64,000 nt of DNA from Thermoanaerobaculia bacterium. GTDB taxonomy: Bacteria > Acidobacteriota > Thermoanaerobaculia > Multivoradales > UBA5704. The notes under the pieces were generated by a model. It did not search any database. It was given only the letters and a program-made list of their open reading frames with translations, and was not told the origin of the DNA. Where the stretch lies: the NCBI GenBank assembly GCA_036275055.1, contig DASUEN010000046.1, positions 22,917-86,916 of the forward strand, written 5' to 3'. Below are positions 31,466-54,222 of the stretch, piece after piece. The translations under genes and the position numbers were made by a program. Each line of letters starts with the position of its first letter. The stretch's first letter is position 1.

Positions 31466-31569
31466 CCCCAACGTCTCCGCGTCGCGCGGCGATGAATCGC
31501 CGCGCGAGGACCAGCGCCGCTGAAGGGGACTTCCTGTCCCGGCGCGCGCGCCAGCCGCTGAGGCCGAAC

Positions 31570-32085
31570 GCTGCGTCCCGACTCTCCAGACACCGGTCCA
31601 GAGTCGCAGAAAGCGGGTCAGCGTCTCCTGACATCGGACCGGCACCGGCCGATCCAGAGCGATGTCTGGGGATCCGGGCCAGTGTCTCGAGACATCGCTC
31701 CTGTGTCTGGAGATCCAGACTGATGTCTGGGGATCCAAGCCGATGTCGGCTCCTCTGAAACGGTGCCTCCTGACAGCGGACCGGCGTCTGCCGATCCAGA
31801 GTGATGTCTGGGGATCCAGGCCAGTGTCTCCAGATATCGCTTCGATGTCTGGGGCTCCAGACTGATGTCCGGGGATCCAAGCCGACGCGGCTCACACTGG
31901 GCCGGCGTCTTCAGCATCGGACCGGCGTCTGCCGATCCAGAGCGTTGTCTGGCGATCCAAGCCGGTGTCGCCAGACATCGCTCCGGTGCCTGAAGATCCA
32001 AGCCGACGTCTCGGGATCCAAGCCGACGCCGGCTCACGCGGGACCAACGTCGGCAGATCCAAAGCGATGTCAGGCGATATACTCC
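31570..32085. repeat. Non-coding tandem array: about 3.5 higher-order units of 140-142 bp, each made of seven ~20-bp GATCC...GATGTCTGGG subunits
   Basis: Units are at 31621-31762, 31763-31902 and 31903-32042, with a partial fourth. GATCC occurs 12 times between 31651 and 32056. Every interval between them is 20, 41 or 60-61 bp. Confidence 0.85.
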
Positions 32086-32110
32086 GTTGTCCTGAGGTCG
32101 TGGGTCTCCT

Positions 32111-39250: not shown

Positions 39251-41854
39251 CTACCGCGCCCCTGCGCCCGCGGCCTTCGCGAGCTGCGGGCGCACGGCGT
39301 CGAACCAGGGAAACGCGAACCAGCGGCGGTCGACGCCGCCGGCCAAGGCCTTTCTGGCATTCATGCGGGCGGAGGTCTCGTCGCCCACCAGGGCGTAGAC
39401 CAGAGATGCGGCATAGGCCACCTGGGGATCGCCGGCATCGTGGCGCTGGGCCTCTTGGATCGCCGCCACCGCCTCTTCGGAGCGGCCGAGGTGCGCCAGG
39501 GCCTGAGCGCGGGTGGTCAGCAAGGCATCGGGATCGGGATCGCGGGCGGCGTTTTCCAGCACTCGCGAGTAGAAAGCCGAAGCCCCTGGGCGATCGCCCC
39601 GCAGCAGCGCCGTATCGGCCAGGTTCAAGAGCGTCATCGGCGAGGAAGGAGCTTCTTTGAGGGCGCTGCGAAAGCTTTGGTCAGCCGCCTCGTAGCGATT
39701 GAGAAGCAGGTAGGCCATGCCGAGGTTGGTCAGCTCCGTTTCATCGGGAGCGCGCTTGACGAGCGTTTCGTAAAGCTCTGCGGCACGCTGCGGATTGCCG
39801 TTCAAGAGCTCCAGTTGGGCCAGGCGCGAAAGGGCATTGTACCGGTCCGGCGAACGCTCAAGGGCGATCTCCAGATAACGCCGGGCGCCGTTGACGTCGC
39901 CCGCTCGCAAGGCCATGTCGGACGCCTGTTGCAGCAGGAGCCAGGAGGGCTCGCGGCCGGCGGCGCGGCGGATCAGCGCCAGTCCCTCCTGGCTTTTACC
40001 CTGCTTTTCGAGCAGCGACGCCGCGAGCCCTTGGAAGCCCGGGTCGTCCGGCTGCACCCGCTGCGCACGAGCGAGAACGGCGGCGGCTTGCTGCAATCGT
40101 CCGCTGTTGAGCTCGACGAGGAAGGCGGCGCGCAGGGCACGCGGGTCATCGGGCGCCAGCTCCGTGGCGCGGGCGATGGCGGCGCGCGCGCGGCCGAGGG
40201 CAGCCTGGTCCCGATCGACCACGAACTGTTGCCGGGCGATGTTGGTTTCCAGGAGGTAGGCTTCGAGGAAGCGGGGCGAGGTGCGCTCGATCTGCGCCAA
40301 TTCGGTGAGGAACGCGGCGGGAGACGTTCCGCTGTCGCGGGTGCGGTAGCGGCGGCTCAGGTCGAGGAATTTTGCGTAGTCGGTCTCCGTCACCTGCAGG
40401 TCCGCAATCCCGGCGCGCAGCGCGAGATCAGGATAGGCGCCGCGCACCTGCTCCGCCACCGAGGCGCTCAAACGCAGGAGCTCGTGGACCGGCACGTCGA
40501 AGCGATGGACCCACGACAAGCTCCCGTCGGCGCGCAGGCGCCGTAGCTCGACCTGGCAGTCCTCGCCCGCACAGTCCAGGCGGGAGGTCACGACCTCATC
40601 GGTGGCGACGGCGCGCGCCAACTTCACCGGATCGTCGTCGGTTTCACCCGGCGGCGGCTCGCGCACCGCCAGGCCTTGAAAACCGAGGAGCGCCCGCAGG
40701 AGCCCGGTGTGCACGGCTCCCGCCGCGAGGTGCTGGTCCTCGGGAGCGGCGGTCGGAGGCACCGCAACGGACGTCGCCGGGGGAGGCGAGGCCAGCCAGC
40801 GCCAGGCGGTGAAGGCGAGCAGGGCTAGAGCGAGGAGCGCCGCCGCCGCGGCCAGCAGGCGGCGGCGCGGCCAGCCCAGGGCGCCCCGGCCGGAAACGGC
40901 AGCCGGCGCGCCGGGCGCCGTCGGATCGAGAGTGGGGACGGAGAGACCCGGCGGCGGCGTCAGCGCGGGCATCTCCGGGTGCGTCTCACCCGACCCCGCG
41001 AGCTCGGCGAGGAGGGCCATCACCTCCTCCGTCCGCTCCGGCCGCCTCGCTTTGTCTTTCTGCAACAGCCGGTCGACCAGATCGCTCAAAGGCGCGGGAG
41101 TCTCCGGGGCGAGGTGGATCACGGCCGGCGGCTTCTGAGTGCAGATGCGGGTCAGGGTCTCGATCGCGTTCTCCGATCGAAAGGGCAAGACTCCCGTGAG
41201 CATTTGATACAGCAAAATGCCGAGAGAAAAGAGATCGGAGCGGTGGTCGACCGGCTGGCCCAGGGCCTGCTCGGGGGACATGAAGTTGACCGTGCCCACG
41301 ATCTGGCCGGTGCCGGAGAGCGACGAGAGCACAGGGTCCGGCCCCGCGAAACGGCGGGCGAGGCCGAAATCGAGGATCTTGACCTCGCCGCCGGCCGTCA
41401 GCATGACGTTGTCGGCCTTGAGGTCGCGATGCACGATGCCGGCGCGATGGGCGGCGGCGAGACCGGCCGCGACGTCGCGGGCGATGCGCACCGCCTGGTC
41501 CGCCGGCAAGGGGCCGCCGGCGAGGAGCGCGGAGAGCGGCCGGCCCTCCACGAGCTCCATCACCAGCCAGTCGTCGCCCTCGGCTTCGACCCAGTCGTAG
41601 ACCTGCACCAGGTTGCCGTGGCTCAGGCGGGCGAGGGCGCGCGCCTCGCGCCGGAAGCGAGCGCGGCCGGCCTCGGGATCGCGAGCGTCCGGCTTGATGC
41701 GCTTCAGGGCCACTGGCCGGTCGAGCCGGTCGTCGTACCCCTGATAGACCTCCCCCATGCCGCCGCGGCCGAGCAGACGCTCGACGCGATAGGGCCCCAG
41801 CATGGCCGGCGGCGACGAACGGTCCGAACGATTCGCAGCGGGCTCCAACGACAT
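39251..41854 (-). CDS. Ser/Thr protein kinase with one TM segment and a long TPR domain
   Basis: An 867-aa ORF. Kinase motifs are GRGGMGEVY, VALKRI, HRDLKADNVML, DFGLA and GTVNFMSPE. A TM helix (LLAAAAALLALALLAFTAW) is followed by about 400 aa of TPR-like repeats. Confidence 0.85.
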   Translation of the reverse strand: MSLEPAANRSDRSSPPAMLGPYRVERLLGRGGMGEVYQGYDDRLDRPVALKRIKPDARDPEAGRARFRREARALARLSHGNLVQVYDWVEAEGDDWLVMELVEGRPLSALLAGGPLPADQAVRIARDVAAGLAAAHRAGIVHRDLKADNVMLTAGGEVKILDFGLARRFAGPDPVLSSLSGTGQIVGTVNFMSPEQALGQPVDHRSDLFSLGILLYQMLTGVLPFRSENAIETLTRICTQKPPAVIHLAPETPAPLSDLVDRLLQKDKARRPERTEEVMALLAELAGSGETHPEMPALTPPPGLSVPTLDPTAPGAPAAVSGRGALGWPRRRLLAAAAALLALALLAFTAWRWLASPPPATSVAVPPTAAPEDQHLAAGAVHTGLLRALLGFQGLAVREPPPGETDDDPVKLARAVATDEVVTSRLDCAGEDCQVELRRLRADGSLSWVHRFDVPVHELLRLSASVAEQVRGAYPDLALRAGIADLQVTETDYAKFLDLSRRYRTRDSGTSPAAFLTELAQIERTSPRFLEAYLLETNIARQQFVVDRDQAALGRARAAIARATELAPDDPRALRAAFLVELNSGRLQQAAAVLARAQRVQPDDPGFQGLAASLLEKQGKSQEGLALIRRAAGREPSWLLLQQASDMALRAGDVNGARRYLEIALERSPDRYNALSRLAQLELLNGNPQRAAELYETLVKRAPDETELTNLGMAYLLLNRYEAADQSFRSALKEAPSSPMTLLNLADTALLRGDRPGASAFYSRVLENAARDPDPDALLTTRAQALAHLGRSEEAVAAIQEAQRHDAGDPQVAYAASLVYALVGDETSARMNARKALAGGVDRRWFAFPWFDAVRPQLAKAAGAGAR

Positions 41855-41990: not shown

Positions 41991-42005
41991 TGGCACAGCC
42001 GTTGC
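41991..42005 (+). promoter_or_regulatory. Sigma54 (-24/-12) promoter
   Basis: TGGCAC-agccg-TTGC lies at 41991-42005, an exact consensus core. It is 44 nt upstream of the ATG at 42049. Confidence 0.75.
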
Positions 42006-42048
42006 TCTCTGCCGCCACCACAACCTGTTGTTTCATGGAGGGATGACG

Positions 42049-43851
42049 ATGAAAAAGAACTATCGTAGGTTCAGCTTGTCAAAGCTCTTCACCACCCTGG
42101 CCGTGACGCTTGCTTTGATCGGCCTGTGCCTGGTGGAGCCGCCGGTTTCGGCTCGTGCGGGGATGGTGCGCTCCACCCGTGCAGGGAACCAGTCCTTTCC
42201 TGCGATCGGCCCGGCTTTGGCGGTTCTGCCCCCGGACCTTCCGGCGGCGCCGGCTGCCACCACCCTGACCCAAGCCGCGACCTTCGCCTGGAAAGAATTC
42301 ATCGCCCTCAACTGGCCGGCCCAAACCGGGAAACGCGACACTGCGGATACCACCAAGATGTTCGGCGACCAGAGCGTTCCCCTCGTCTGGCAGACCTTCC
42401 GCGCCAAGGTGGAGATCTACCCGGGAAACGGCAATGAGAAGATAGGCCCCCACGGCTCGAACAAAGGGCCGAGCCAGGACTACGGTTACGACGATCCGCC
42501 GGAATACATTTATTCGAAAGACAGCGTGATCAACGGCTCGGACGTGCTCCCTTGCAGCGGGCAGGCTGCGCCCAACCAACCGGCATGGATCAATCTCGAC
42601 GAGGTGAGCCAGATCGGCTCGGACTCGATGTACGCAGGCTTCGGCCAGGATCCGGCCCCGACACCCACCAACAGCAAGCCCAACCTGTTCCGCTACATGG
42701 CGAAGGCCAACCGGACGGAGTACACGTACGTGGTGAGTAACCAGTACTGGTATACGCAAGGAACGGATCCCTCGGTTTCCAGTCCGCTCCAAACCGCGCA
42801 AAACAACTTCGTCAAGAACGTCGTCAACAAGAGACGGATTCCGCCCCTGGGCGCCTCGACAGTATTTTTTCCGGCCTCCTCGGCTCAAGATCCCGGGACG
42901 ATCGAAGTGAAGGCGGCCTGGCGCCCTTTGGGACCCTCCGAGCCCGCTGGGCGGTATCATGTGGCGAACGTGCGCTACTACGAGCGCGACCTGACTCAGA
43001 AGTTCTGTTACCGCGAGGACCAATGGGCTCTGCTGGCGCTCCACATCATACGCAAGACGCCCAAGGCACCGAGCTTCATCTATGCCACCTTCGAGCAGGC
43101 GGACAACATCCGGGACGGCAACGGTGCCCCAATCGAAAACCCGGATGGCAGCGTCATCCATCCGCCTCCTCCCAGCCCGCCCACCAACCCCGCATTGACT
43201 TACACGGATCATCCGAAGCACGCGACCCTCACGGCGGCGAGCACCACCTGTACGCCTGGAGGGCAGCTTTATTATCAGAACATCCACGAGAGCAACGCCA
43301 CGAAAACGCCCGTCAATCCGGGGCTGCCTTCAGGCACGATCTGTGTCAATTACCGGGACAATGCGATTCCCTCCGACGTCATCGCGGTCAACAAAGCCGC
43401 GCAAGTGGCGATCAACCGATACAACCACAGCGCGCCCTGGCAATACTACAAGCTGGTCAACGTGCAGTGGCAGCCCATTCCCTATCGGGAGATCAACTAT
43501 CTTGACCCCAACGCCCCCTACAACGCTGCAACCTACCACCAGGCGAACGTCGTGGTCGAGACCGACTACCCCTTGCAGATGTTCAACGGCCGATTCCCCG
43601 CGTACGGCGTGAACACCAATTACAAAACGAACGGCAAGCTGTATTTCCAGAACGTTTACACGCTCCACGGCACCAAGGTCAAGTCTTTCGACATGGGTGG
43701 CTGCATGGGGTGCCATGGCAGCGGCGCACAGCGGTTCGGCGCTGACTTCAGCTTCATCCTGGGCAGCCCCGTCACGGCGCCGGAAACCCCCGACGACTAC
43801 TCTCTGGCGGCGATCGCTCAGAAATACAAGGCCCTTTTCGAGCGGCACTAA
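42049..43851 (+). CDS. Secreted ~600-aa protein with a single C-terminal CxxCH haem-c motif (hypothetical); sigma54-promoter target
   Basis: I trimmed track ORF 41899..43851 to the ATG at 42049 (GGAGGG 6 nt upstream). The signal peptide is MKKNYRRFSLSKLFTTLAVTLALIGLCLVEPPVSARA. GGCMGCHGSGAQRFGADFSFIL lies near the C-terminus. Confidence 0.75.
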   Translation: MKKNYRRFSLSKLFTTLAVTLALIGLCLVEPPVSARAGMVRSTRAGNQSFPAIGPALAVLPPDLPAAPAATTLTQAATFAWKEFIALNWPAQTGKRDTADTTKMFGDQSVPLVWQTFRAKVEIYPGNGNEKIGPHGSNKGPSQDYGYDDPPEYIYSKDSVINGSDVLPCSGQAAPNQPAWINLDEVSQIGSDSMYAGFGQDPAPTPTNSKPNLFRYMAKANRTEYTYVVSNQYWYTQGTDPSVSSPLQTAQNNFVKNVVNKRRIPPLGASTVFFPASSAQDPGTIEVKAAWRPLGPSEPAGRYHVANVRYYERDLTQKFCYREDQWALLALHIIRKTPKAPSFIYATFEQADNIRDGNGAPIENPDGSVIHPPPPSPPTNPALTYTDHPKHATLTAASTTCTPGGQLYYQNIHESNATKTPVNPGLPSGTICVNYRDNAIPSDVIAVNKAAQVAINRYNHSAPWQYYKLVNVQWQPIPYREINYLDPNAPYNAATYHQANVVVETDYPLQMFNGRFPAYGVNTNYKTNGKLYFQNVYTLHGTKVKSFDMGGCMGCHGSGAQRFGADFSFILGSPVTAPETPDDYSLAAIAQKYKALFERH

Positions 43852-43888
43852 CCGGGCGCGGCTTCGCTCGCCCGAGGAGCCGAAGCTC

Positions 43889-45460
43889 TCACTGAGCGTT
43901 AGCCCGGTCTGCCCCGGCGAACCTCAACTTCGGGTCGTGCTGAGCCCGGTACAAGTAGCTCACCATTCGCCGCGTCAACTCCACGGTGGCGGCGACCTTC
44001 TCCGCGGCTTCGTAGAACAGCCGCAAAGCGGCTAGGGCTTCGCGCTCGATGCCTTCGGCTTTGAAGATCCATTTGAGCCGGGAGGCCGCCATCCAGACCT
44101 CCCGGCTGCGCCCCTCCTCCAGGTAAAGGGTGGCAAGCTCCAGCGTCGCCAGGGCGGCATCGAAAGGAATCTCTCGGGTGTTGAAGCTCTCGCAGACCTC
44201 TTCCAGAGCTTTGATGGCCTCAGCCCTTCTTCCCAGCCCAGCGGCCAGCCAACCCTCCAGCCAGCGGGTCCGAACCAAATCCAGTTCTTGGCCAAGTCGG
44301 TTTGCCAGTACCCGCACCGCCCGTAGGGGCTCCTCGGCTTCCGCAAAGCTTCCAAGATGCAGTAAGTTACCAAGGAGATTGAACCGCAGGCCGAACAACA
44401 ACCGAGGTTCTTGATTGCCATCAATCAGTGGCTCTGCTTGACGGAGGGCAGTGATCGCGCCGTGATAGTCGCCGAGCATCTCAAGCGCCCGCGCGCGGTT
44501 GACCAGAAGGTATTTCGCCTCATCGTGGCGGTCGACCTCCAGGGCCTCAGCGAGCAGGGCCAAGGCCTGGGCAGGCTGCCGCTGCTCCATGCGCAAAGTA
44601 GCCTCTAGACCTAGAACGCGTGCTTCATTGAACAGCCCCGGATCAGCAGGTGCTCCAGCCTTCCAAAGAGGTAATGCATTTCGGAAGGCTTCCTCGGCAT
44701 CCTGTAAATAGCCATGTACCCGCCTTGCGTTCCCAAGATGGACGCCGGCATAGCCCTGAGTTCGTTGAGAGAGGCTTCCGAGAACTCGGTTGGCGATCTC
44801 GACGGCCAATTCGGCAAGCTCCAGCGCTCGTTCCGCACTGTTGGAAGCCGCCGTAACGGATTCGGCACAGGCCAGTTCGCAGACAGCCCAGGACCAGTAC
44901 TCAGGTGCCTCTTCAAGTAGTAGCGCGCGTTCCGGCGCCGAGGTGTCCCGAAGTACGGCCCACAGCCCGGGAGCTTCCAAGCGATCCGCAGGTGACGGCG
45001 GGCGGTCCAACCGCCAAGGGCCGCCAACGCCATGCAAGACCTCTTCGACGACCGCCGCCACAGTCGGGCGAACGATCGCTGAAAGCAAAGCCATCAGCTC
45101 ACCCGGCAAGTCTTTCACCTCGGAGGAGACGTTACCCGTCATTCCCGGAGCCGTTCCACTCAGGACGGCCAGCACCTTACGGATCGCCGGCCGCAGGACC
45201 GCGTCAACGGTAGTGGATGGCACGCCAACCGCGGCGCAGATCTTCGCCCAATTCTCCGGACTGGGAGCCCTCTTCCCATTCTCGAAACGGCTGATCGAGC
45301 TTTCCGGAACGCCCGACCTGGCAGCCAACTCGGCCTGACTCCAGCGCCGAATGCCACGCAGGCACCAGATCAGCCAAGCCGTTTCGGCCAGGACTGGAGG
45401 TGACGTTCTCGGCTCCGGGGGCAAGATAGCTTGCCGTCTCGGGTGTGATTTTCCACTCAT
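43889..45460 (-). CDS. XRE-type HTH plus TPR regulator, paralog 1
   Basis: The HTH reads LRGIRRWSQAELAARSGVPESSISRFENGKRAPS. It is followed by about 380 aa of TPR-like repeats. By eye it is roughly two-thirds identical to 45953..47446 across the TPR region. Confidence 0.8.
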   Translation of the reverse strand: MSGKSHPRRQAILPPEPRTSPPVLAETAWLIWCLRGIRRWSQAELAARSGVPESSISRFENGKRAPSPENWAKICAAVGVPSTTVDAVLRPAIRKVLAVLSGTAPGMTGNVSSEVKDLPGELMALLSAIVRPTVAAVVEEVLHGVGGPWRLDRPPSPADRLEAPGLWAVLRDTSAPERALLLEEAPEYWSWAVCELACAESVTAASNSAERALELAELAVEIANRVLGSLSQRTQGYAGVHLGNARRVHGYLQDAEEAFRNALPLWKAGAPADPGLFNEARVLGLEATLRMEQRQPAQALALLAEALEVDRHDEAKYLLVNRARALEMLGDYHGAITALRQAEPLIDGNQEPRLLFGLRFNLLGNLLHLGSFAEAEEPLRAVRVLANRLGQELDLVRTRWLEGWLAAGLGRRAEAIKALEEVCESFNTREIPFDAALATLELATLYLEEGRSREVWMAASRLKWIFKAEGIEREALAALRLFYEAAEKVAATVELTRRMVSYLYRAQHDPKLRFAGADRANAQ

Positions 45461-45541
45461 AGCACACCATACTCCTGGGAGACCGGCGCCCGCCCAGCCA
45501 TGCCGGCCGCGGCGGAGCCGCCCTCAAGAAAGGAGATCTCG

Positions 45542-45880
45542 ATGCTAGGTCGCACTCTCCGCCTCGTCGTCGCAGTCGCACTCTGTCTCGTGCTCGCTGC
45601 CTCGCTGCCGCTGGCCGGCGCGCAGCGGCCCGGAATCTCAGCTCGGCCTGTTGCAACCCCAAAGGCAGCCCAGGCAGGCTTCTGGGAATTCGTCAAGGGG
45701 GCTGCCTACAGTCTCTTGAACGGATGCAGCCTCGATCCGTACGGAGCCTGCCTGGGGGCCACGCTACCCCAGCCAAACAACGGATGTAGCATAGATCCCT
45801 ACGGTCGCTGCTTGCCTGGAGCTCAGCTAGACAACGGTTGCAGGATTGATCCGTACGGGCTCTGCATGCCGGGGAGTTGA
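45542..45880 (+). CDS. Small secreted protein with three NGC-x-(I/L)DPYG-x-C repeats
   Basis: The ATG at 45542 follows AAAGGAGA. The signal is MLGRTLRLVVAVALCLVLAASLPLAGA. Repeats are NGCSLDPYGACLG, NGCSIDPYGRCLPG and NGCRIDPYGLCMPG. I trimmed track ORF 45500..45880. Confidence 0.6.
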   Translation: MLGRTLRLVVAVALCLVLAASLPLAGAQRPGISARPVATPKAAQAGFWEFVKGAAYSLLNGCSLDPYGACLGATLPQPNNGCSIDPYGRCLPGAQLDNGCRIDPYGLCMPGS

Positions 45881-45903
45881 CTGCTTCCGCCCGGCGGAGC
45901 ACT

Positions 45904-45940
45904 GCCGGGCCGGTGCCATCCGGCCTGGCGGTTTTCTTCT
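45904..45940 (+). terminator. Intrinsic terminator after the repeat-peptide gene
   Basis: GCCGGGCCGG tgccat CCGGCCTGGC forms a 10-bp stem with one G-U pair. It is followed by GGTTTTCTTCT. Confidence 0.6.
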
Positions 45941-45952
45941 CCAAGCGGCGGT

Positions 45953-47446
45953 TCATGCAATGGCTTCAAACCGGAGGTCCGGGTTTCCTTGTGCTCGATA
46001 GAGATAGGAGCCAATCCTCTGTGCCAGGTCCAAGGTGAGAGCCTCTTGCTCGGCAGCGTCGTAGTAGAGCCGGAGGGCCGCCAGGGCAGCGGGAGGGACC
46101 GCTTCGGTCTTGAAGATCCATGCCAGGCCAAGGGCTAACCGCCTGACAGCCGTGATGCGCCCCTCCTGGAGATATATAGTTGTAAGCTGCAACGTCGCCA
46201 TGGCGGCATCGAAGGGAATTTGCCGCGTTGAAAAATCCCGGCTCACCTGCTCCAAGGCGGCGACCGCTTCTTCTCTCCGTCCCAACCCGGAAGCTACCCA
46301 CCCCTCAAGCCATCGGGTCCGAACCAAATCGAGAGCCTGCCCCAAGCGCTCTGCCAGAGGCCGGAGCTTACGCAGCCCCTCCTCAGCTTCGGCGTAGAGC
46401 CCAAGGTAACAGGTCGCGCCGAGAAGATTGAACCTCAGACTAAACAACAAGCGGGGTTCCTGTCTTCCGTCGACCAGCGGTTCCGCCTGGCGGAGCGCGG
46501 CAGTCGCTCCGTTATAGTCCCCGAGTTGCTCAAGCGCTCGCGCCCGGTTGACCAGAAGATACTTTCTCTCACCCTGGCGGTCCACGGCCAAGGCCTCGTC
46601 GAGTAAGGCCAAGGCTTCCGCGGGCCGCCGCTGGCCGATTCGCAGGGAGGCCTCCAGACCAAGAACCCTGGCCTCGTTGAGCAACCCCGGATCGGCGGGC
46701 GCTCCGGCCTTCCAGAGGGGGAGGGCGCGTGCAAAGGCTTCGTCGGCGTCTCGGAGCTTTCCATGTACGCGCCTGGCGTTCCCGAGGTGGACGCCCGCGT
46801 AACCCTCGACACGTTTGCGCATGAGCGGCTCGCCCGTCATCTGCTGTGCAATCTCCACCGCCAACTCGGCAAACTCCAAAGCCCTATCTGCATTGTCGGG
46901 TGCCGCCTTGAGCGACTCGGCGCAAGCGAGCTCGGAGACCGCCCAAGACCGGTACTCCTGGGTCTTCCGAATCAGCGTCCGCCGCTCGGAAGGAGTCCGG
47001 CGCAGCAGCCGCGCTAGCGAGCCCTGAGCGACCTGCCGGTCCGCCAGGGCTCGCACTTCCCAGGACAGGTGGGTCGCCAACAACCGGCCGACTTGGGAGG
47101 TCGCGTCGGCGATGCTTTGCCCGAGCCTGTCGATCGTCTGAAGCTCGGCGCCAGCCTCTCGGGTCTCCGCCGTCGGGTAGACCGGGGACGCGGCTTTGGC
47201 TCGAACCCGGTCGATGAAGGCAAGCGCATCGTCGATGGCCGTACGCTGGAAGCCCATGACGGCGACGATCGTCTCCAAGCGCTCCCGGGTTAAAGACTTC
47301 TTCCCTCGCTCATAGTCCGAGATCAGGCTGGCCGAGACCCCCAGCGCCTCAGCCAACTCGCCCTCACTCCACCCGATGGCTTTCCGCAGGTACGTGAGCG
47401 TAAGCCCCAACGGCGGCAGAATTTTCGGCACCGACCCCTCCTCCAC
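45953..47446 (-). CDS. XRE-type HTH plus TPR regulator, paralog 2
   Basis: GTG start. The HTH reads LRKAIGWSEGELAEALGVSASLISDYERGKKSLT. The TPR region is colinear with paralog 1 (for example YAGVHLGNARRVHG, LPLWKAGAPADPGL, KYLLVNRARALE, DLVRTRWLEGW). Confidence 0.8.
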   Translation of the reverse strand: MEEGSVPKILPPLGLTLTYLRKAIGWSEGELAEALGVSASLISDYERGKKSLTRERLETIVAVMGFQRTAIDDALAFIDRVRAKAASPVYPTAETREAGAELQTIDRLGQSIADATSQVGRLLATHLSWEVRALADRQVAQGSLARLLRRTPSERRTLIRKTQEYRSWAVSELACAESLKAAPDNADRALEFAELAVEIAQQMTGEPLMRKRVEGYAGVHLGNARRVHGKLRDADEAFARALPLWKAGAPADPGLLNEARVLGLEASLRIGQRRPAEALALLDEALAVDRQGERKYLLVNRARALEQLGDYNGATAALRQAEPLVDGRQEPRLLFSLRFNLLGATCYLGLYAEAEEGLRKLRPLAERLGQALDLVRTRWLEGWVASGLGRREEAVAALEQVSRDFSTRQIPFDAAMATLQLTTIYLQEGRITAVRRLALGLAWIFKTEAVPPAALAALRLYYDAAEQEALTLDLAQRIGSYLYRAQGNPDLRFEAIA

Positions 47447-47851
47447 ATGCGCAGACCCCTACTTATAGTAGGTTGCCGCTAGGCGGCTTTTCGTGACAAG
47501 CCGAAACCAGAAGCGGCGGCCGCGGTGTGAAATTCTCGTCGCCGGGAATTAAGATTGCCGAAACCTCGCCGAGAAAAACACCTGGCTTTGCGCGTTGGAA
47601 GACCTCCTTTACGGTCGCGGCATGGGAGGAATTTGGAAAGCAACGAAGGCGCGCGAACGACCTCCCTCCATCCCAGCGGCGGCGCATCGCAGCGGGGACA
47701 GTCCGGGACGGCCGCTTAGCTTTCAGGGCAGCCGGCCCGGCCCTTTTCTCTTGCAGGGAGGTGGGAGACATCCCATGACCGAGGGGGAAGCCGTAGGATT
47801 TCAGCAGCGGGCCCCGGCGCTCGCCGCCTACAGGCCGCCGGGGGAGAAGTC

Positions 47852-49069
47852 GTGAGACGCGGCGGCAGTGCTTACCGCTATCAACAGGTCTGGGAGAACC
47901 TGACGGCCCGGGCGCCCGAGCACCTGCGCATCGCGCACAGCCGGAGGCAGACCGCCCAGCAGCTCCTCACCGACTTGGCCGCCCAACCTCCGGAGTCGTG
48001 GATCGCCCAGATCCAGAAGGGCGGGGAACCCTTCCGCAGTCAGGATCTCTTCGATCTGCTGTTGGAAACCTGCCAGGGCGCACTGCCCTTCGAGCCTCTC
48101 CGGGCCTTCGAGGTCTCGAAGGCGGCGGTCGAGGTAGGACGGCTGCTCGCCTCCGCAGGGGCGGAGAACCCTCAGACTCTGCTGCCGGCGGCTCCTGTCC
48201 TGGAGGAGGCTTTGCTGTGCCGAGCCCTCTGTCTGAACAGCCACGCTCTCCGGCTTCTTGGTCAGCGCGAGCACGCCGAGGCCGCTCTCACCCGTGCGGC
48301 GTGCTTTTTGGGCGATCCGTCAGCGCGTGGCTTCTACGGCCAGGCTTTGGGGTTGCTTCGCTGGGATCAAGGCCGGGAGGAGGAGGCCGTCGCCTTCCTG
48401 CACCACGCCGGCCGCCGGTATCGGGAGCTGGGAGATGTGGGCGAGGAGGCGAAGTGCGCGGCCTTGCTGGGGCTCCTCTACCTCCGATACGACGACGGGG
48501 CGGAGTGGCAGCAGGCCGAGTCTGCCTTGCTTCGGGCGCAGTCTGGCATGGATTGTCAGCAAAGGCCTTGGCTCGCGGCGCAGGCGCAACTCGCCTTGGC
48601 GCGCTGCCAGGCCTTGAGAGGACGCAGGAGTGAGGCGCGAGCGTTGAGGCAGAGCGTCCGATCCCTCTACCCCTCCGTACCTACCGAGGATGACCTGGCT
48701 GCGTTGCATTGGCTCGAAGCGCAGATCGCGCAGGACCTGGAGGAACTAGAGGGAGCCGGGACGCTGTTGGATTCGGCTCGCCGAAGTTTCGTCGCGAGGG
48801 GGTGTCTTCCGGAGGCCACCCTGACCACTCTTCAGCTCGGCTGGATTCGTGCCCGGCAGGGGCGAGGCGAGGAGACCTCGGTGCTGAGCGATGAGCTGAC
48901 AAGAGTCTTCGGGATGGTCAAAGGCTTCGACGTGTCCTCGCGTGCTCTTCAATGTCTGGCCCGAGAGACGGCGCGTCGCAGCCTGAAGGGAAAGAGCTTG
49001 GCCTACCCGAAGCTCTTCCTCTCCTTTCGCGTGCGGGGTGTGTTTCCCCGCCCCATACCGTTCGTCTGA
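47852..49069 (+). CDS. TPR-like helical-repeat protein lacking an HTH (hypothetical)
   Basis: A 405-aa ORF with a GTG start after GGGGGAGAA. Its helical repeats and C-terminal layout resemble the two HTH-TPR proteins. Confidence 0.6.
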   Translation: MRRGGSAYRYQQVWENLTARAPEHLRIAHSRRQTAQQLLTDLAAQPPESWIAQIQKGGEPFRSQDLFDLLLETCQGALPFEPLRAFEVSKAAVEVGRLLASAGAENPQTLLPAAPVLEEALLCRALCLNSHALRLLGQREHAEAALTRAACFLGDPSARGFYGQALGLLRWDQGREEEAVAFLHHAGRRYRELGDVGEEAKCAALLGLLYLRYDDGAEWQQAESALLRAQSGMDCQQRPWLAAQAQLALARCQALRGRRSEARALRQSVRSLYPSVPTEDDLAALHWLEAQIAQDLEELEGAGTLLDSARRSFVARGCLPEATLTTLQLGWIRARQGRGEETSVLSDELTRVFGMVKGFDVSSRALQCLARETARRSLKGKSLAYPKLFLSFRVRGVFPRPIPFV

Positions 49070-49240
49070 GGTGCGCCCCCCTGCCGCTCGCTAGAACCAT
49101 GAAGCTGCCAACGAAAAAGGAAATGAGACATCCTGTGACATCTTGTCGGATACCGACGATCCAGCAGCGGCTGCGGGCGGCCCGGCAGTCCAAAGCTGCC
49201 TCCGATGACGTCATGAGTCTCGCTCTATAGCTCGAAGGAA

Positions 49241-49555
49241 ATGATCGTGGGCACGCATGATCTCATCAGGAGGAAACCCGTGGTCAACGATTCGGAAGCA
49301 GCGGAGGCCGCCGCGCAAATCTTGGAGGTCGCCGAGGGTGTGGAGGCTCTTTGCCGGCGGCTGCGGGAGGTCCATACCCGCCTTCCCGTCTCGCCTTTGG
49401 AACGTCTCATGCTGGTGGGCGAGGAGGACATGGACCGCTCCACACACTTGCGTATCATCCTCGAATGCATCGTCCACGACAGGCTGGAGCCGGTGGCCCG
49501 CGATCTCCGTAGCGCTCTTCACTGGCCTGCCAGCGAACCCGAAGGAAGGGACTAA
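49241..49555 (+). CDS. Hypothetical 104-aa protein
   Basis: The ATG follows GAAGGAA. Its stop overlaps the stop of the convergent TIR-NB-ARC-WD40 gene (CTAA at 49552-49555). I recognise no family, and coding status is uncertain. Confidence 0.4.
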   Translation: MIVGTHDLIRRKPVVNDSEAAEAAAQILEVAEGVEALCRRLREVHTRLPVSPLERLMLVGEEDMDRSTHLRIILECIVHDRLEPVARDLRSALHWPASEPEGRD

Positions 49556-52500
49556 TGGAGTGCTCTCGGCGTCGGGTACCCTGGCTCCACCAGATCGAAG
49601 AAATGCACCTTCCCCGACTGATCGCCAGCCACGATAATTTTTCCATCGGAAGTTGTTGCAACGGCCCACACCGGCGCATCCAAGGTTGTCACGGCTAATT
49701 CCTCTCCGCTTTCCAGGCTCCACACTCGAAGCGTACGGTCGAATGAGGCCGAGACAGCACGACCGTCGGCGAGCATGGCTATGGCTGCGATCGGATCCGT
49801 ATGTCCTTGGAGGATTTGCAGGCTCCGTCGATGCTCAAGATCCCACACCCGAAGCGTCCTGTCCGTGGAAGCAGAGATCACAAGACCGCTGGGCGCGACC
49901 GCCACCGCATTGACTCGGTCCGCATGTCCTCGGAAAACCTGTAGGGTTTGTCCGCTCTCCAGACTCCACACGCGAAGCGTTCCGTCGTTGGATGCGGAGA
50001 CGACGCGGCCGCCCTCTAACTCCGCCACCGCATTGACTCCACTCTCTCCTTCGAGGATTTGCGGGGCTTGCCCGCTTTCCAGACTCCATACCCGAAGCGT
50101 CCGATCCGAGGAGGCGGAGATGACACGACCGTCAGCCAACACAGCCACCGCATTGACCCGGTGATCGTGTCCTTTGAAGTTTTGAAGGGTCCGCCCATTC
50201 TCCAGATCCCACACCCGAAGTATCCCCAGGGCGTCGGCGGAGATAGCGCGACCGTCGGCCGTCACCGCGACTGCGCCAACCGAAGCTGTATGTCCTTGGA
50301 GAATTTTCAAGGTCTGCCCATTCTCCAGGTCCCACACCCGAAGCGCCCCGCGAGCGTCGGCGGAGATGGCGCGACCGCCGGGCACTACCGCTAACGCTCG
50401 GACCCACTCCTGGGATGGTTGGAGAGCTTGCAGAGCCGGCTGTCTACTCTCCAGATTCCAGAGCCGAAGCGCTCCATCAGCATCGGCGGAAACGATACGA
50501 CTGCCGTCCAGCACCGTCACCGCCCTGATCAAAGTCTTGTCTCTTTGCAAGGTTCGCACGACCTGTCCGCTCTCCAGATCCCATATGCGAACCGTCTCAT
50601 CGAGAGAGGCGGACAGCGCGTAGCCTCCGGCCACCGGCACCACCACCCTGACCTCATCCAGGTGCCCCTGGAGGACTCGGAGTGTCTGTCCACTCTCCAG
50701 GTCCCAGACCCGAAGCGTCCGGTCGGCGGAGGCGGAGACAGCGCGGCCGTCGGCCATCATCGCCACGGCTCGGACTCCAGTTATGTGCCCTTGAAGGATT
50801 TTGAACGTCTCTCCGGTCTCGAGATCCCAGACCCGGAGCGTCCCGTCAGTGGAAGCCGAGACGATACGCCGATTGTCCACCACCACCACCGCGTTGACCC
50901 AGTCGCTATGGCCTTCGAGGGTTTGCAGCGTCTGCCCGCTCTCCAGATCCCACACCCGAAGCGTCCGATCCGAGGAGGCGGAGACAAAGCGCCGGCTGTC
51001 GATGACCGCCACCGCGTTGATTCCAGCCGCGTGCCCTTGAAAGATTCGGAGTGTCTGTCCGGTCTCGAGGTCCCAGAGCAGAAGCGTATCGTCGGCGGAG
51101 CCCGAGACGGCACGCCGGCCATCCACCACCGCCACCGCCTTGACCCAGTCAATGTGACCTTTGAGGGTTCGCAGCATCTGCCCGCTCTCCAGGTCCCATA
51201 TCCGAAGCGTCCGATCCGAGGAGGCGGAGATCACGCGCCGGCCGTCGATGACCGCCACTGCGTTGACCTCAGTCAGGTGCCCCTCGAAGGTACGGATCAA
51301 AGCACCGCCCGGATGAATCAAGCCTCCCGTCCTTGGCCGAAGCCAAGGCCGTTTTCGCTGAAGCTTCGCTTCTTCCAGGAAAGCGTGGAGATTTGGCGTG
51401 CCCTTGCCCAGGAGGCGACCCAGGAGCTGTGGAGCAAGCTGCTTCCGATCCCTGGCAAGGACATGTGCCGAAAGACGAAAGGTGTCACGGACAGATCGAA
51501 GTACATCATCCTCTGTCACGAAAGGCTCGAAATCCGCGATCAGAGAGTTGATGTCCGTAGCCAGCAGCTTGGCCTCGATGAACGGGAACCTCACCAACAG
51601 TGCCTTGAATTCGTGCTCATCCCCGGCGCCAATGAAATGATCCCGCAGCCGACGCCAAAGATACGACTCCTCACGGGACAGATCCTCCCACTTCCCACTC
51701 GCAGGGCGATAAACTTCCAACAATCGGGAATGGAGAGACGAAAGCTCGCCGCTCCTCTGCTCCATCAACACCCTTCGGGTAACGTCATGGAGACGAACTG
51801 TTCCGTTCTTTCGATCAAATTCCAACAGCAAGGAAAGGTCATAAAGATGCTGGCAAACCCTGGTGGCGCCGAAATGAGACGTGCCCCAACAGCGCTCCAG
51901 AACCGAGACCGGAATATCCTCGTCTTCCGGGAAGATGGCCAACTGGAAGAAAAACTCCTGCTCCGCCTCGGGAAGACGTCGAACGCCGACGAGAATCGCT
52001 CTCGAGGCCGCCGCATGCCGGGATGCCGAATCGTTCTGGTCGAACGCGGAGAACCCTTCCGTGGCCAGAGCCCCTTCGATCTCCCTGAGGGCCTCTGCGA
52101 TCGACAGCCCTTCTTTTACCATCTCCCGCAAGGGGCCATTCACGAGCTTCAAGAGGAGAGGCCATTCTCCGAGTTGTGCGGCCAAGGATCTGAAATCCTC
52201 AGGAGAAGAGCCCGGGAGCCCGGCCCGGAGCAGGTCGACGGCTTCGGACGAAGCCATCGCGTCCACCCTGATGAGCTTCGAATCCGCGGGGAGGGTGCGG
52301 TTGTCGCGGGTCGTGATGAGGAGGGCGCAGCTCTCTCCGAGCCCCTGGAACGGAGCGACGTCATCCGGCTTCCAGACATCGTCGACGACGACGAGGGCCC
52401 TGGCTCCATTCAAAGACTCGCGGAGCTTCGCGCCGGCGGCGGCGACGGTTTCGAAGGCGCGAGGCTCTTCGTCGGTCCACCAGCGGAGGAGATCCCGGAT

Positions 52501-53241
52501 CTGCTTCAGGCGGCCGTTGGAATCGACCTCCTCCCCCAGAGTCGCCCAGAGAATGCCGTCCGGATACGTCTCCCGGACCCGCTCGTCGAAGCAAAGTTTC
52601 TGGGCCAGCGCGGTCTTTCCAAATCCGCCGGCTCCTCGCAAGGCGGTGGTGATTCCCACCGATCTCCCGGCTTGAGCGCCTTTCGAGCAGAGCACTTCGC
52701 GGACTTCGTCGTACTCTTGGCGGTGAACCCACCCCTCAGGCTCTTGCGCCACCATGCAGCGATAGTGAAGAGTGTTCTTCGCCGGTCCCCCTCCCCCGCC
52801 CGGACCGGGCGCCTGTCCTCGAATCCCGCTGATCAGACTACGGAAGGCGTCCTCGTCATCGAGACCTGCGCGGAAGTCCACCCAGGCGAGACGGCGGAGG
52901 AAACGGGGAAGCTTTTCCTCCCGGGGCTCGAAGGAGCCGGGGAGGAGGACGGGGACCACCCGGAAGGCGCGGTCGCCCACCCGGGCCTCCAGAGCGGAAC
53001 GCATCTCCTCGTTCTGCCAGGAGCCGAGACCCCTGGCGCCCAGGAACACGGCGCAGGTACGGCTCGCGTCGAGCGCCTCCTCCAGCGCCTCCTGCCAGGG
53101 ATCACCCGGGATGAGATGCCACTTGTCCAGGAACGGCTCGATTCCCGCTTCCTGGAGCTTCCGGGCAAGGCTCTCCACGGCAGGCTTGTCCGCGCTGCTG
53201 TGGCTCAGGAAGACGTCGTAGCGGGACATTGGCATCGTCAA
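49552..53241 (-). CDS. NLR-like STAND protein: N-terminal TIR domain, NB-ARC/APAF-1-type NTPase and 14 WD40 repeats
   Basis: The TIR reads YDVFLSHSSADKPAVESLARKLQEAGIEPFLDKW...GSWQNEEM. Walker A is GAGGFGKTALA and Walker B is LVVVDDVW, followed by LLITTR and an ARC-like helical region. Then come 14 repeats of the type GHxxxVNAVAVxxDGRxxSASxDRTLRVWDLESGQTL. The track start is a TTG at 53241; ATGs at 53235 and 53229 are alternatives. Confidence 0.9.
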   Translation of the reverse strand: MTMPMSRYDVFLSHSSADKPAVESLARKLQEAGIEPFLDKWHLIPGDPWQEALEEALDASRTCAVFLGARGLGSWQNEEMRSALEARVGDRAFRVVPVLLPGSFEPREEKLPRFLRRLAWVDFRAGLDDEDAFRSLISGIRGQAPGPGGGGGPAKNTLHYRCMVAQEPEGWVHRQEYDEVREVLCSKGAQAGRSVGITTALRGAGGFGKTALAQKLCFDERVRETYPDGILWATLGEEVDSNGRLKQIRDLLRWWTDEEPRAFETVAAAGAKLRESLNGARALVVVDDVWKPDDVAPFQGLGESCALLITTRDNRTLPADSKLIRVDAMASSEAVDLLRAGLPGSSPEDFRSLAAQLGEWPLLLKLVNGPLREMVKEGLSIAEALREIEGALATEGFSAFDQNDSASRHAAASRAILVGVRRLPEAEQEFFFQLAIFPEDEDIPVSVLERCWGTSHFGATRVCQHLYDLSLLLEFDRKNGTVRLHDVTRRVLMEQRSGELSSLHSRLLEVYRPASGKWEDLSREESYLWRRLRDHFIGAGDEHEFKALLVRFPFIEAKLLATDINSLIADFEPFVTEDDVLRSVRDTFRLSAHVLARDRKQLAPQLLGRLLGKGTPNLHAFLEEAKLQRKRPWLRPRTGGLIHPGGALIRTFEGHLTEVNAVAVIDGRRVISASSDRTLRIWDLESGQMLRTLKGHIDWVKAVAVVDGRRAVSGSADDTLLLWDLETGQTLRIFQGHAAGINAVAVIDSRRFVSASSDRTLRVWDLESGQTLQTLEGHSDWVNAVVVVDNRRIVSASTDGTLRVWDLETGETFKILQGHITGVRAVAMMADGRAVSASADRTLRVWDLESGQTLRVLQGHLDEVRVVVPVAGGYALSASLDETVRIWDLESGQVVRTLQRDKTLIRAVTVLDGSRIVSADADGALRLWNLESRQPALQALQPSQEWVRALAVVPGGRAISADARGALRVWDLENGQTLKILQGHTASVGAVAVTADGRAISADALGILRVWDLENGRTLQNFKGHDHRVNAVAVLADGRVISASSDRTLRVWSLESGQAPQILEGESGVNAVAELEGGRVVSASNDGTLRVWSLESGQTLQVFRGHADRVNAVAVAPSGLVISASTDRTLRVWDLEHRRSLQILQGHTDPIAAIAMLADGRAVSASFDRTLRVWSLESGEELAVTTLDAPVWAVATTSDGKIIVAGDQSGKVHFFDLVEPGYPTPRALH
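49590..51300 (-). repeat. Fourteen tandem ~126-bp WD40-coding repeats with high internal identity
   Basis: The repeats are visible at DNA level (recurring CTCCAGATCCCACACCCGAAGCGTCC-type strings on the plus strand) and at protein level (LRVWDLESGQTL appears many times). Confidence 0.85.
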
Positions 53242-53442
53242 ACTGGGAAGTTAGGCGGACTCGGCTCCAGTGCAAGTTTAAGGCATGCGGGAGGGCGTCC
53301 GGGCTGATAGACTTGTCGGAGTTTCGCATGGAGGTGCGGGGGAGAGGCGATGAGGCCTGGCCATGCGGGTCTGAAAAACTCGTCGTTCGCTCCCGAGCGC
53401 CTGGCGGGGTTCCTGAGCCGTATCATTACATCCGAGAGTCCC

Positions 53443-54189
53443 ATGAGTACTATCTTTGATCTCCTAGTCGCCTTCGAAATCCACTCGGTCGAGCGAATTC
53501 GGTCGATTCTCGACGCCGGTTTCGATGTCCGCACGCCTGTGAAGGGCAAGGCACCGATTGCTCACCTGATCGAGATGTACTATCGATCGGACGCCTTTCC
53601 GGATTGCGTGAGGCTCCTTTTGGACCGGGGAGCCGTGCTCGAGGATCCGGTGCTCCGGCCCGTTTTCTTGAATGACGTGGATGAGCTGGAGGCAGCGATC
53701 CGTGCCAATCCGGCTCTTTTGCAACACCGGACGTCTTTGGCGTGCGCCTTCACGCCACTCCTCGGTGTCACGCTTTTGCACGTCGCCGCCGAATACGGAC
53801 ACCTGGAGGTGGCACGCAAGCTCATCGAGCTCGGTGCCGAAGTCGACGCGCGGGCGGCTACCGACGAATTCGGCTTCAATGGTCACACTCCACTCTTTCA
53901 CACGGTCAATTCCAACGAGAATCGCTCTGCGCCCGTCATGAACCTGTTGCTTGACGCGGGTGCGCGACCCGATATTCTCTTGCCTGGAATCACATGGGGC
54001 CAGGGATTCGAATGGGAGACGCTTTGCTTCGACGTAACGCCCATCTCCTACGCACAGCTTGGTCTCCTCCGCCAAATGCAGCGCACCGAGGCCGACACGT
54101 ACGCCAACGTAGCCACGCTCTTGAGGGCAGCAAAGCGGTCTGTACCTTCTTTCACCAACGTCCCGAACCGGTATCTCGCCTCGCCGTGA
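53443..54189 (+). CDS. Ankyrin-repeat protein
   Basis: I trimmed track ORF 53350..54189 to the ATG at 53443. ANK signatures are present (TLLHVAAEYGHLEVARKLIELGAEVDA, GHTPLFHTV...VMNLLLDAGARPD). It is divergent from the TIR-NB-ARC-WD40 gene. Confidence 0.8.
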   Translation: MSTIFDLLVAFEIHSVERIRSILDAGFDVRTPVKGKAPIAHLIEMYYRSDAFPDCVRLLLDRGAVLEDPVLRPVFLNDVDELEAAIRANPALLQHRTSLACAFTPLLGVTLLHVAAEYGHLEVARKLIELGAEVDARAATDEFGFNGHTPLFHTVNSNENRSAPVMNLLLDAGARPDILLPGITWGQGFEWETLCFDVTPISYAQLGLLRQMQRTEADTYANVATLLRAAKRSVPSFTNVPNRYLASP

Positions 54190-54222
54190 AGCCGTTTGAC
54201 CCACCGTTGGAGCGGAAGGCAG

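Follow-up and report, generated by a model that had tools for sequence, protein, structure and literature searches.

A TIR/NB-ARC/WD40 protein of the NLR type in a Thermoanaerobaculia genome, with an Apaf-1-like switch and an old array of fourteen WD40 repeats

Does a bacterial gene that joins a TIR domain, an Apaf-1-like ATPase and fourteen WD40 repeats encode a receptor that works on its own, and are its repeats still being reshuffled? The question is raised by a locus of a Thermoanaerobaculia bacterium (Acidobacteriota; assembly GCA_036275055.1) that lies within 64,000 nucleotides of contig DASUEN010000046.1, positions 22,917 to 86,916 of the forward strand. This whole stretch is called the window here, and coordinates refer to it unless a homologous locus is named. 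The gene occupies 49552-53241 on the reverse strand. An earlier note on this DNA had described its product as an NLR-like protein with unusually similar, diversifying repeats and had viewed it together with the adjoining genes. Our analysis indicates that the gene probably encodes an NLR-like receptor made of a single polypeptide, a STAND protein from the AP-ATPase (Apaf-1 / NB-ARC) clade, carried in an acidobacterial, Thermoanaerobaculia-like genome.

The ORF list and the translation give an uninterrupted 3.7-kb open reading frame (ORF) of 1229 codons, the length that had been stated before, and together with the Pfam matches they indicate a complete gene. The start as listed is a TTG at 53241, with alternative ATG starts at 53235 and 53229, and no obvious Shine-Dalgarno sequence was seen in the upstream sequence. 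Pfam matched all three of the modules that the earlier note had named, TIR, NB-ARC and WD40, and the motifs that it quoted (GSWQNEEM, GAGGFGKTALA and LVVVDDVW) are all found in the translation. Judged from its sequence, the gene is intact and encodes a bacterial NLR-type receptor, in which a TIR enzyme domain is followed by an ATPase switch like that of Apaf-1 and by a WD40 sensor of 14 blades, and classing the protein as an NLR-like, probably immune, receptor is reasonable.

The TIR domain spans amino acids (aa) 10-137 (52831-53214, on the reverse strand like all other parts of the gene) and matches TIR_2 at E 5e-27, with 95.2 bits against a curated cut-off of 28; its confidence score (pLDDT) in AlphaFold2 (AF2) is mostly above 84. 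Among PDB sequences it aligns with PdTIR (3h16), with the NAD+ hydrolase AbTIR (8g83/7uwg) and with TcpB/BtpA. W75 and E79 of SWQNEEM sit on the W and E of AbTIR WTNYEL, and E79 also sits on the Glu of PdTIR and of TcpB. Conservation of this and all other residues was scored in one alignment of 45 homologues, in which E79 is conserved in at least 90%. Glu at this position is the catalytic residue of TIR NADases, and the candidate that the earlier note had located in GSWQNEEM can be identified with E79 (codon 53005-53007) from the AbTIR alignment and its conservation. The domain carries a WxxxE-type NADase motif (W75-QNE-E79), and NADase activity is predicted.

The central part of the protein contains a switch of the Apaf-1 type. 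NB-ARC is matched at aa 196-339 (54.2 bits, cut-off 23.5), a segment that represents the nucleotide-binding domain (NBD) with helical domain 1 (HD1) at 52225-52656 and that is also supported by homologue conservation and by alignment to Apaf-1. Residues invariant among the homologues include G203, G205, G206, G208, K209 and T210 of the Walker A motif GAGGFGKT (203-210), D287/D288 of the Walker B motif LVVVDD (283-288), R312 of the sensor-1 triplet T310-T311-R312, and G358, W360, L363 and L364 of the HD1 GxP region GEWPLLL (358-364), where P361 is conserved in at least 90%. The winged-helix domain (WHD; aa 430-495, 51757-51954) is placed by alignment to Apaf-1, by a weak Dark_WHD match at aa 430-484 (18.2 bits, under the cut-off of 27) and by its LHD motif at 484-486, where 'rlhdv' falls on 'ylhdl' of Apaf-1 and H485 is invariant. 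The His of LHD is the counterpart of the MHD motif of NLRs. Helical domain 2 (HD2) of the Apaf-1 type follows at aa 500-627 (51361-51744), indicated by APAF1_C at aa 500-574 (32.6 bits, cut-off 22.8), by alignment to Apaf-1 and by AF2 helices at 497-627. The NBD-HD1-WHD-HD2 switch is complete in the alignments, with all its nucleotide-binding and sensor residues intact.

The assignment of this NTPase to the APAF-1/NB-ARC type, which had been proposed earlier, is upheld by both sequence and fold. Apaf-1 is the best PDB sequence match to the nucleotide-binding oligomerisation domain (NOD; E 5e-18), aligned over Apaf-1 residues 151-586, which comprise NBD, HD1, WHD and HD2. An AF2 model of residues 1-650, built from the 45-sequence alignment, has a mean pLDDT of 87.4, and its top Foldseek match is ADP-bound Apaf-1 (1z6t; E 7e-20, TMq 0.59), with full-length mouse Apaf-1 (3sfz) at TMq 0.58; active apoptosome chains fit less well (TMq 0.29-0.32). 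The plant TIR-NLR RPP1 aligns with the model over both TIR and NB-ARC (545 columns, E 1e-12), and NRC, ZAR1, Dark and CED-4 rank after it. The NACHT match to the protein reaches only E 0.03 in Pfam. The NCBIfam identity FxSxx_TPR was rejected because its 71 bits, against a cut-off of 300, reflect the common AP-ATPase domain.

The C-terminal half of the protein is made up of WD units that number exactly 14 and recur every 41 aa (40-42) over aa 643-1216. The units were delimited by WD-dipeptide anchoring and, independently, by a hidden Markov model (HMM) of the units, and Pfam families of WD40 and beta-propeller type match very strongly over aa 647-1218 (up to E 1e-123). An AF2 model of residues 636-1229, with a mean pLDDT of 91.5, contains 56 beta-strands, which make 14 blades of four when blades are assigned from the strand list and not from coordinates. 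The sole internal stretch of low confidence, model residues 298-307 (aa 933-942), lies just after unit 7, and in the model this linker marks the border between two propellers. By fold the model comes closest to the Nostoc 'highly repetitive propeller' 2YMU, which has 14 repeats (E 2e-49, 36% identity); small-subunit (SSU) processome WD40 proteins are next, and then the Apaf-1 WD region. Segmentation, strand count, linker and 2YMU match all agree with the pair of 7-bladed propellers that the earlier note had suggested. The modelled array fits a first predicted propeller of units 1-7 (aa 643-929, 50455-51315; AF2 pLDDT ~97, with a fitting strand count) and a second predicted propeller of units 8-14 (aa 930-1216, 49594-50454; segmentation, AF2 and fold match).

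The repeats themselves are less alike than had been thought. They had been called near-identical and unusually alike, and this pattern, with differences at a few positions, had been read by comparison with fungal and actinobacterial NLR-like proteins as a mark of recombining and diversifying ligand-binding surfaces. In the window gene, unit-to-unit identity averages 48% at the amino acid level (range 20-71%; 51% without the divergent last, or cap, unit) and 64% at the nucleotide level (maximum 80%), and TRF reports 67-81% matches. Codon positions 1 and 2 are identical between units at 69%, compared with 54% at position 3. Position 3 is near saturation and positions 1 and 2 are better kept, which points to old repeats under purifying selection. 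The 12-mer LRVWDLESGQTL, which was said to recur almost verbatim, occurs in two exact copies, in four with at most one substitution and in ten with at most three. At these values the description as near-identical does not apply to this gene, the claim of almost verbatim recurrence does not hold as worded, and no sign of recent recombination or homogenisation was seen. Several units have also lost conserved residues: the GH His is missing in four (units 7, 8 and 14 are without the dipeptide altogether, and unit 11 reads GE), and units 8 and 9 are without the conserved Asp.

The pattern that the earlier note had in mind is seen in relatives of the gene. With the cap unit excluded, amino acid identity between units is 0.79 in P0001, 0.70 in P0003 and 0.71 in P0026, and nucleotide identity is 87% in P0001, 84% in P0002 and 86% in P0011. 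In these relatives, codon positions 1 and 2 are about equal to position 3, or position 3 is higher (83% vs 87% in P0002). The homologue of locus L010, a protein of 1292 aa, has ~16 almost identical WD units. Relatives with near-identical units lie at 3609-6479 of locus L001, 8001-10910 of L002, 7001-10090 of L006 and 7968-11846 of L010. Their sequences bear the marks of units that were recently amplified or converted and of diversifying change; the window gene shows no such marks. Since the relatives' repeats are near-identical and those of the window gene are not, recent unit amplification or conversion, with amino acid change in excess, is a property of the family that has long been inactive on this member. 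Highly-Repetitive WD40 proteins have been defined by an internal identity of at least 0.7 and Moderately-Repetitive ones by at least 0.4 (Hu et al. 2017, PMC5587647). At 0.48-0.51, the window protein lies under the first cut-off and falls in the moderately repetitive class.

Where the units differ was examined by column entropy over a 41-column unit, LESGQTLQTLEGHTAWVNAVAVLDGRRAVSASSDGTLRVWD, with within-protein values averaged over 11 family members. Entropy peaks at columns 15 and 16 (GH+2 and GH+3), 18 (where strand A begins) and 33 (just ahead of the conserved Asp), and columns 11, 35 and 14 are the next most variable. The top face of a canonical WD40 propeller is made up of the D-A loop and the B-C turn, and the A-B loop lies on the bottom face. 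Six top-face columns, taken from this textbook topology and assigned after the entropy profile had already been seen, hold 28% of the total entropy in the window protein, compared with 15% expected (permutation p ~1e-4), and 36-40% in the more uniform relatives. The other 72% in the window protein is spread over strand D and other loops. The earlier note had held that differences cluster after GH, in the xxDGR loop and at the SxD turn. Columns after GH and on the top face are enriched, but most of the variation lies elsewhere, and the xxDGR loop is the A-B loop of the bottom face. Because the columns were chosen post hoc, because loops vary anyway and because xxDGR belongs to the bottom face, the claim is partly right for the window gene and clearer in its relatives. 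In WD40 proteins of the highly repetitive kind, the positions that vary are interaction hot spots (Hu et al. 2017, PMC5587647), and the peak variable columns found here coincide with those positions.

A search with residues 1-650 returned 494 proteins at E <= 1e-10, most of them with TIR_2, NB-ARC, APAF1_C and WD40. The best relatives, 80% and 78% identical, come from Thermoanaerobaculia metagenome-assembled genomes (MAGs) and soil metagenomes, and the homologues of the loci that we examined are 49-80% identical to the window protein. Two archaeal proteins, P0062 and P0069 (from ANME-1 'Candidatus Methanophaga' and a Euryarchaeota MAG), have the full domain set at 38-39% identity. Because these two share the whole set, the combination of TIR_2, NB-ARC, APAF1_C and WD40 appears to cross the boundary between bacteria and archaea.

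Homologues in several of the loci share a genomic site. The gene priA lies directly upstream on the same strand in 7 distinct loci (L001=L008, L002, L003, L004=L005, L007, L009 and L010), and in L006 the homologue is found in another, non-priA context. A second NB-ARC-WD40 gene lies between priA and the TIR gene in L003 and L004, three transposase genes lie downstream in L003, and neighbours across the homologue loci include priA, RidA, a peptidase, accA and recJ. Identities between the priA-site loci form a mosaic (priA 70-96%, NOD 51-87%, TIR region 26-93%); L001 and L002, for example, are 96% identical in priA, 87% in NOD and 63% in TIR. This pattern suggests, from the sequence comparison, that the N-terminal module has been exchanged. 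Unit number among homologues ranges from 7 to ~16, and the first unit and the last one have orthologues from protein to protein, as internal units do not, from which we conclude that the array probably grows and shrinks from the inside. No conserved partner gene was found, the only conserved neighbour being the housekeeping gene priA in those 7 distinct loci.

No priA was found in the 64-kb window. The window protein has a NOD with 82-85% identity to its L001 and L002 counterparts, and with priA absent the gene is thus a close relative at a different genome position. One speculative account of this, which we consider unlikely, is that the family forms a fast-evolving receptor locus anchored at priA, with duplication, loss and homogenisation of units (7 to ~16 of them, alike to 84-87% at the nucleotide level and with non-synonymous change that equals or exceeds synonymous change) and exchange of the TIR module, and that the window gene is an escaped copy whose 14-blade sensor was frozen long ago, possibly for a stable or endogenous ligand. 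The same displacement could instead mean that the gene is a decaying paralogue without current function. Its position outside the family's usual priA-adjacent site, the lack of an obvious Shine-Dalgarno sequence before its start and its repeats, which are among the most degenerate of the family (four units without the GH His and two without the conserved Asp), would all fit such decay. However, the 3.7-kb frame is unbroken, all catalytic and switch residues are intact, the comparison between units (69% at positions 1 and 2 vs 54% at position 3) indicates purifying selection, and both AF2 models are confident, with all 14 blades included. On balance, decay seems very unlikely to us.

A functional receptor is the reading that we prefer, and we regard it as fairly probable, by analogy, that the protein is an anti-invader receptor in which ligand-triggered oligomerisation activates the TIR NADase. 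The template for this mechanism is the established behaviour of Apaf-1, of plant TIR-NLR (TNL) resistosomes and of bacterial TIR and STAND defence proteins. At rest, the protein would be a closed, ADP-bound monomer that its WHD/HD2 and propellers keep locked. Binding of a ligand to the top faces of the propellers would release the lock, and this ligand would most plausibly be a phage protein or a protein of another mobile element. ADP would then be exchanged for ATP, and the NOD would oligomerise into a ring similar to the apoptosome or the plant TNL resistosome. The clustered TIR domains would form composite NADase sites around E79, and NAD+ depletion or an ADP-ribose-derived signal would lead to growth arrest or death before the invader spreads (abortive infection). 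Because the repeats have long since diverged, the sensor of the window protein is probably fixed and not currently reshuffled.

Several observations weigh against this reading. We infer NADase activity, oligomerisation, the ligand and phage defence all from homology. The likeness of the model to closed Apaf-1 may merely reflect a preference of AlphaFold and is weak evidence. Loss of the GH His in units 7, 8, 11 and 14 and of the Asp in units 8 and 9 could reflect relaxed constraint, and top-face variability alone is no proof of ligand-driven diversification, since loops vary in any WD40 protein. Defence context is also lacking. No recognisable defence island was found around the gene in the window. 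With the PADLOC-DB v2 models, the protein matched 12 families, among them short TIR-domain matches of 35-95 aa (PDC-S66, SAVED_TIR, bSEFIR, ThsB and RT-TIR) and a WD40-only match (HEAT-ARM_XIII); neither AVAST nor any other named STAND (NLR-like) defence family was among the 12. Neither PADLOC nor NCBIfam assigned the protein to a system or an equivalog, and no relatives of ThsA, RT or CD-NTase were found among the neighbours of the gene. The PADLOC check that the earlier note had proposed yielded no known system at the locus, only generic matches to TIR-domain and WD40 models.

In a rival reading, the same molecule responds to a trigger other than phage, such as an endogenous or cell-cell signal in stress-induced death, in kin recognition or allorecognition as in fungal HET-E/NWD, or in development, with TIR as a death effector or signal generator. 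The missing defence island agrees with such a role, old and stable repeats fit a fixed ligand better than an arms race, and the family has been held at priA over long evolutionary distances and has not moved with mobile elements. In addition, published surveys place such NLRs mainly in social or multicellular bacteria (PMC7159879; the 2020 survey). On the other hand, relatives at the priA site do resemble participants in an arms race, with 7 to ~16 repeats, near-identical units, TIR swaps and transposases nearby, and the bacterial STANDs tested so far sense phage proteins (PMC13581612). We judge a non-phage trigger, the main rival, to be unlikely.

Under the anti-invader reading, the NLR protein would act alone, and the ankyrin, TPR and small-protein genes next to it would not be partners. 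The earlier note had instead viewed the neighbourhood as one system, made up of the NLR gene, a divergent ankyrin gene, a small ORF that overlaps the NLR stop and a group of TPR and HTH-TPR genes. The arrangement itself was correctly described. The ankyrin gene does diverge from the NLR gene, at a distance of ~200 bp, and the NLR stop TAG (49552-49554) overlaps the stop TAA of the convergent small ORF (49553-49555) within CTAA, although the small protein probably has 91 aa and not the 104 aa given before. Third-codon-position G+C content (GC3) is also evenly lower across 44-54 kb (0.70-0.77) than in the flanks, and in L010 a single 65-aa fragment that resembles the C terminus of an HTH-TPR protein lies just upstream of the NLR homologue. 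This fragment is the sole HTH-TPR match in the 9 distinct NLR-homologue loci that we searched (tblastn E <= 1e-3; ~3.6-8 kb of flank on each side), and relatives of the ankyrin, 405-aa and small proteins were found in 0 of the 9.

The ankyrin-repeat protein, matched by Pfam Ank, is probably encoded at 53443-54189 (+) and is not part of the NLR unit. The ORF as listed (start 53350, 279 aa) is probably 31 codons too long, since the called product has 248 aa and its homologues nearly all have 247-252 aa. More than 3000 family members were detected, ~70-80% identical and from different phyla, and nearly all of the 120 listed fall within that length range. Conservation of 70-80% is unusually high across distant taxa for a protein without known function. 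No STAND or NLR gene was found in three ankyrin homologue contexts, and the protein belongs, judging by its homologues, to a large, conserved, stand-alone family whose thousands of members occur in unrelated contexts.

On the other side of the NLR gene, Pfam matches, paralogy, the small-protein family and co-occurrence delimit a separate cassette with genes on both strands (43889-49555). It begins with a helix-turn-helix (HTH) protein of the XRE type with TPR (43889-45460, -), followed by a Cys-rich secreted protein of 126 aa with three GC[SR][LI]DPYGxC repeats (45500-45880, +) and a second XRE-HTH + TPR protein (45953-47446, -). Both regulators named in the earlier note were confirmed by Pfam, and they are 54% identical to each other. 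An HTH-less TPR protein of 405 aa comes next (47852-49069, +); it has no Pfam match and is a distant paralogue of the HTH-TPR proteins (27-29% identity), which agrees with how it had been described. The last gene, at 49280-49555 (+), encodes the small 91-aa protein with a conserved, Cys-containing core, and its probable start is a GTG at 49280, six bases after AGGAGG. Because an exhaustive HMMER search found relatives in 86 representative clusters (E <= 1e-3, mostly 80-100 aa), this ORF is considered a real gene. The core of the family reads LPVSPxExxMLxGExxxDxxTExRSVIECVLxDxLxPAIRDL, and some relatives have an N-terminal H...C..C extension like that of zinc-binding anti-sigma factors.

With a narrower alignment of these relatives, 80 metagenome loci were inspected. 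Upstream sequence of at least 1.2 kb was present in 47 of them, and in 37 of these 47 a divergent XRE-HTH + TPR gene, homologous to the two in the window, was found (median 265 bp between starts). Downstream sequence of at least 1.3 kb was likewise present in 47, of which 10 had a TPR gene of the 405-aa type directly downstream. The Cys-rich 126-aa protein had a relative in 17 of the 80, encoded convergently with the small gene, and an NLR or ankyrin relative was found in none of the 80. The layout of the cassette recalls receptor plus secreted-peptide (RRNPP-like) signalling. Because its genes co-occur in metagenome loci without the NLR gene, 43889-49555 is an independent conserved cassette that merely abuts the 3' end of the NLR gene, and because the small ORF and the NLR gene are convergent they cannot be co-transcribed. 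Adjacency, shared GC3 and the L010 fragment thus have to be set against partners that are missing from all 9 NLR-homologue loci, small-protein loci that have a divergent HTH-TPR gene in place of an NLR or ankyrin gene, an ankyrin family with unrelated contexts and the convergence of the small ORF. The gene-pair conservation that the earlier note had put forward as a check was looked for from both sides, in the 9 homologue loci and in the 80 small-protein and three ankyrin contexts, and was found in none; a multi-gene system is largely refuted and, in our estimation, extremely unlikely.

Further out, the flanks encode two Ser/Thr kinase-TPR proteins, an FHA/Fis protein, a nitroreductase, a luciferase-like monooxygenase, an ATP-grasp protein, a TonB-dependent receptor, purE and purK. 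Since these flanks are metabolic or signalling in nature, the defence role of the NLR is drawn from its domains and not from its context. The match of the Ser/Thr kinase-TPR protein at 39251-41854 to PD-T4-6 (E 1e-89) was set aside as probably generic Hanks-kinase similarity. A protein with ATPase_2 and DUF234 at 27269-28648 matches the PADLOC candidate PDC-S27 (E 4e-28). Segments 42000-54200 and 28000-32000 have a lower G+C content (0.60-0.65) than the remainder of the window (0.67-0.74), and GC3 of the NLR, ankyrin and TPR genes at 44-54 kb is 0.70-0.77, compared with roughly 0.77-0.96 (mostly above 0.85) in the larger flanking genes. Neither a tRNA nor an integrase or transposase was seen next to the NLR gene in the window, and a mobile-island origin of the segment with low GC3 is not shown. 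Just upstream of a Ser/Thr kinase gene at 32111, the intergenic stretch 31560-32090 carries an array in which a degenerate 20-nt motif (GATCCAGAGYGATGTCTGGG-like) is organised with a period of 142 nt and ~2.9 copies. Identification of this array (~31.6-32.1 kb) as CRISPR was rejected, as the 20-nt / 142-nt tandem repeat is degenerate and has no unique spacers.

How does the protein compare with known systems? It resembles Apaf-1/Dark in the order NBD-HD1-WHD-HD2, including the His of LHD, and in its C-terminal sensor of two WD40 propellers; it differs in its N terminus, which is a TIR enzyme where Apaf-1 has a CARD adaptor, and the two are only ~20-23% identical. The propellers of Apaf-1 have 7+8 blades, compared with 7+7 modelled for the window protein. 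With the plant TIR-NLRs RPP1 and ROQ1 it shares the fusion of TIR to NB-ARC and, by analogy, the expected path from ligand-induced oligomerisation to TIR NADase activity, but its sensor is WD40 where plants have leucine-rich repeats, and it has an HD2 of the Apaf-1 type. We know of no bacterium with an EDS1-type downstream pathway. Fungal NLRs of the HNWD / HET-E type, on which Dyrka et al. are said to have reported in 2014, and prokaryotic Highly-Repetitive WD40 proteins are similar in placing WD40 on a STAND NTPase, with variable repeat number and top-face variability. The fungal proteins differ in using NACHT and other N-terminal domains. P0001, P0002, P0011 and the L010 protein fit the Highly-Repetitive pattern, whereas the window protein, with an identity of 0.48-0.51 and saturated synonymous sites, does not.

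Avs (AVAST) and bNACHT proteins are likewise single-gene STANDs, with the effector at the N terminus and a sensor of repeats at the C terminus, but the window NTPase is NB-ARC (NACHT E 0.03) and it has no AVAST match in PADLOC. Tested Avs/bNACHT members recognise phage proteins and cause abortive infection (2026 survey, PMC13581612). The same survey describes most bacterial STAND sensors as TPR-like alpha-helical repeats (PMC13581612), unlike the WD40 sensor of the window protein. It also places bacterial Apaf-1 orthologues with beta-propeller sensors among the defence-associated STAND clades (Nature 2026, PMC13581612). Those orthologues resemble the window protein in being prokaryotic Apaf-1-type STANDs whose propeller sensors are alike in structure, and the window protein contrasts with them in its TIR domain and its acidobacterial host.

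The earlier note had considered the architecture not to be a described one, and the literature contradicts this. TIR fused to AP-ATPase has been described in bacterial conflict systems (Kaur et al. 2020, PMC7159879; Kaur et al. 2021, PMC8195603), TIR is a frequent N terminus of bacterial NLRs (2020 survey), prokaryotic WD40 proteins with 14 repeats and highly repetitive ones with variable hot-spot sites were catalogued in 2017 (PMC5587647), and bacterial Apaf-1 orthologues have also been published. Sequence analyses described proteins of this type long ago, and the finding reveals no new kind of system. More original are the priA-anchored reshuffling family and the cassette of HTH-TPR proteins, small protein and Cys-rich peptide.

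For the family, the window gene adds one more intact and well-modelled example from Acidobacteriota to the bacterial Apaf-1-like NLRs. Its combination of a plant-TNL-like TIR + NB-ARC head with an animal-Apaf-1-like HD2 and double propeller helps trace how the immune and apoptotic receptors of eukaryotes are related to prokaryotic ones. In the literature searched we found no experimentally tested bacterial TIR-NB-ARC-WD40 protein, and for this reason a clean construct could be informative. If the proposal of a priA-anchored locus and an escaped copy were true, the reshuffling copy at priA and the frozen, displaced copy would together show, as a natural experiment, how bacterial NLR sensors arise and then become fixed.

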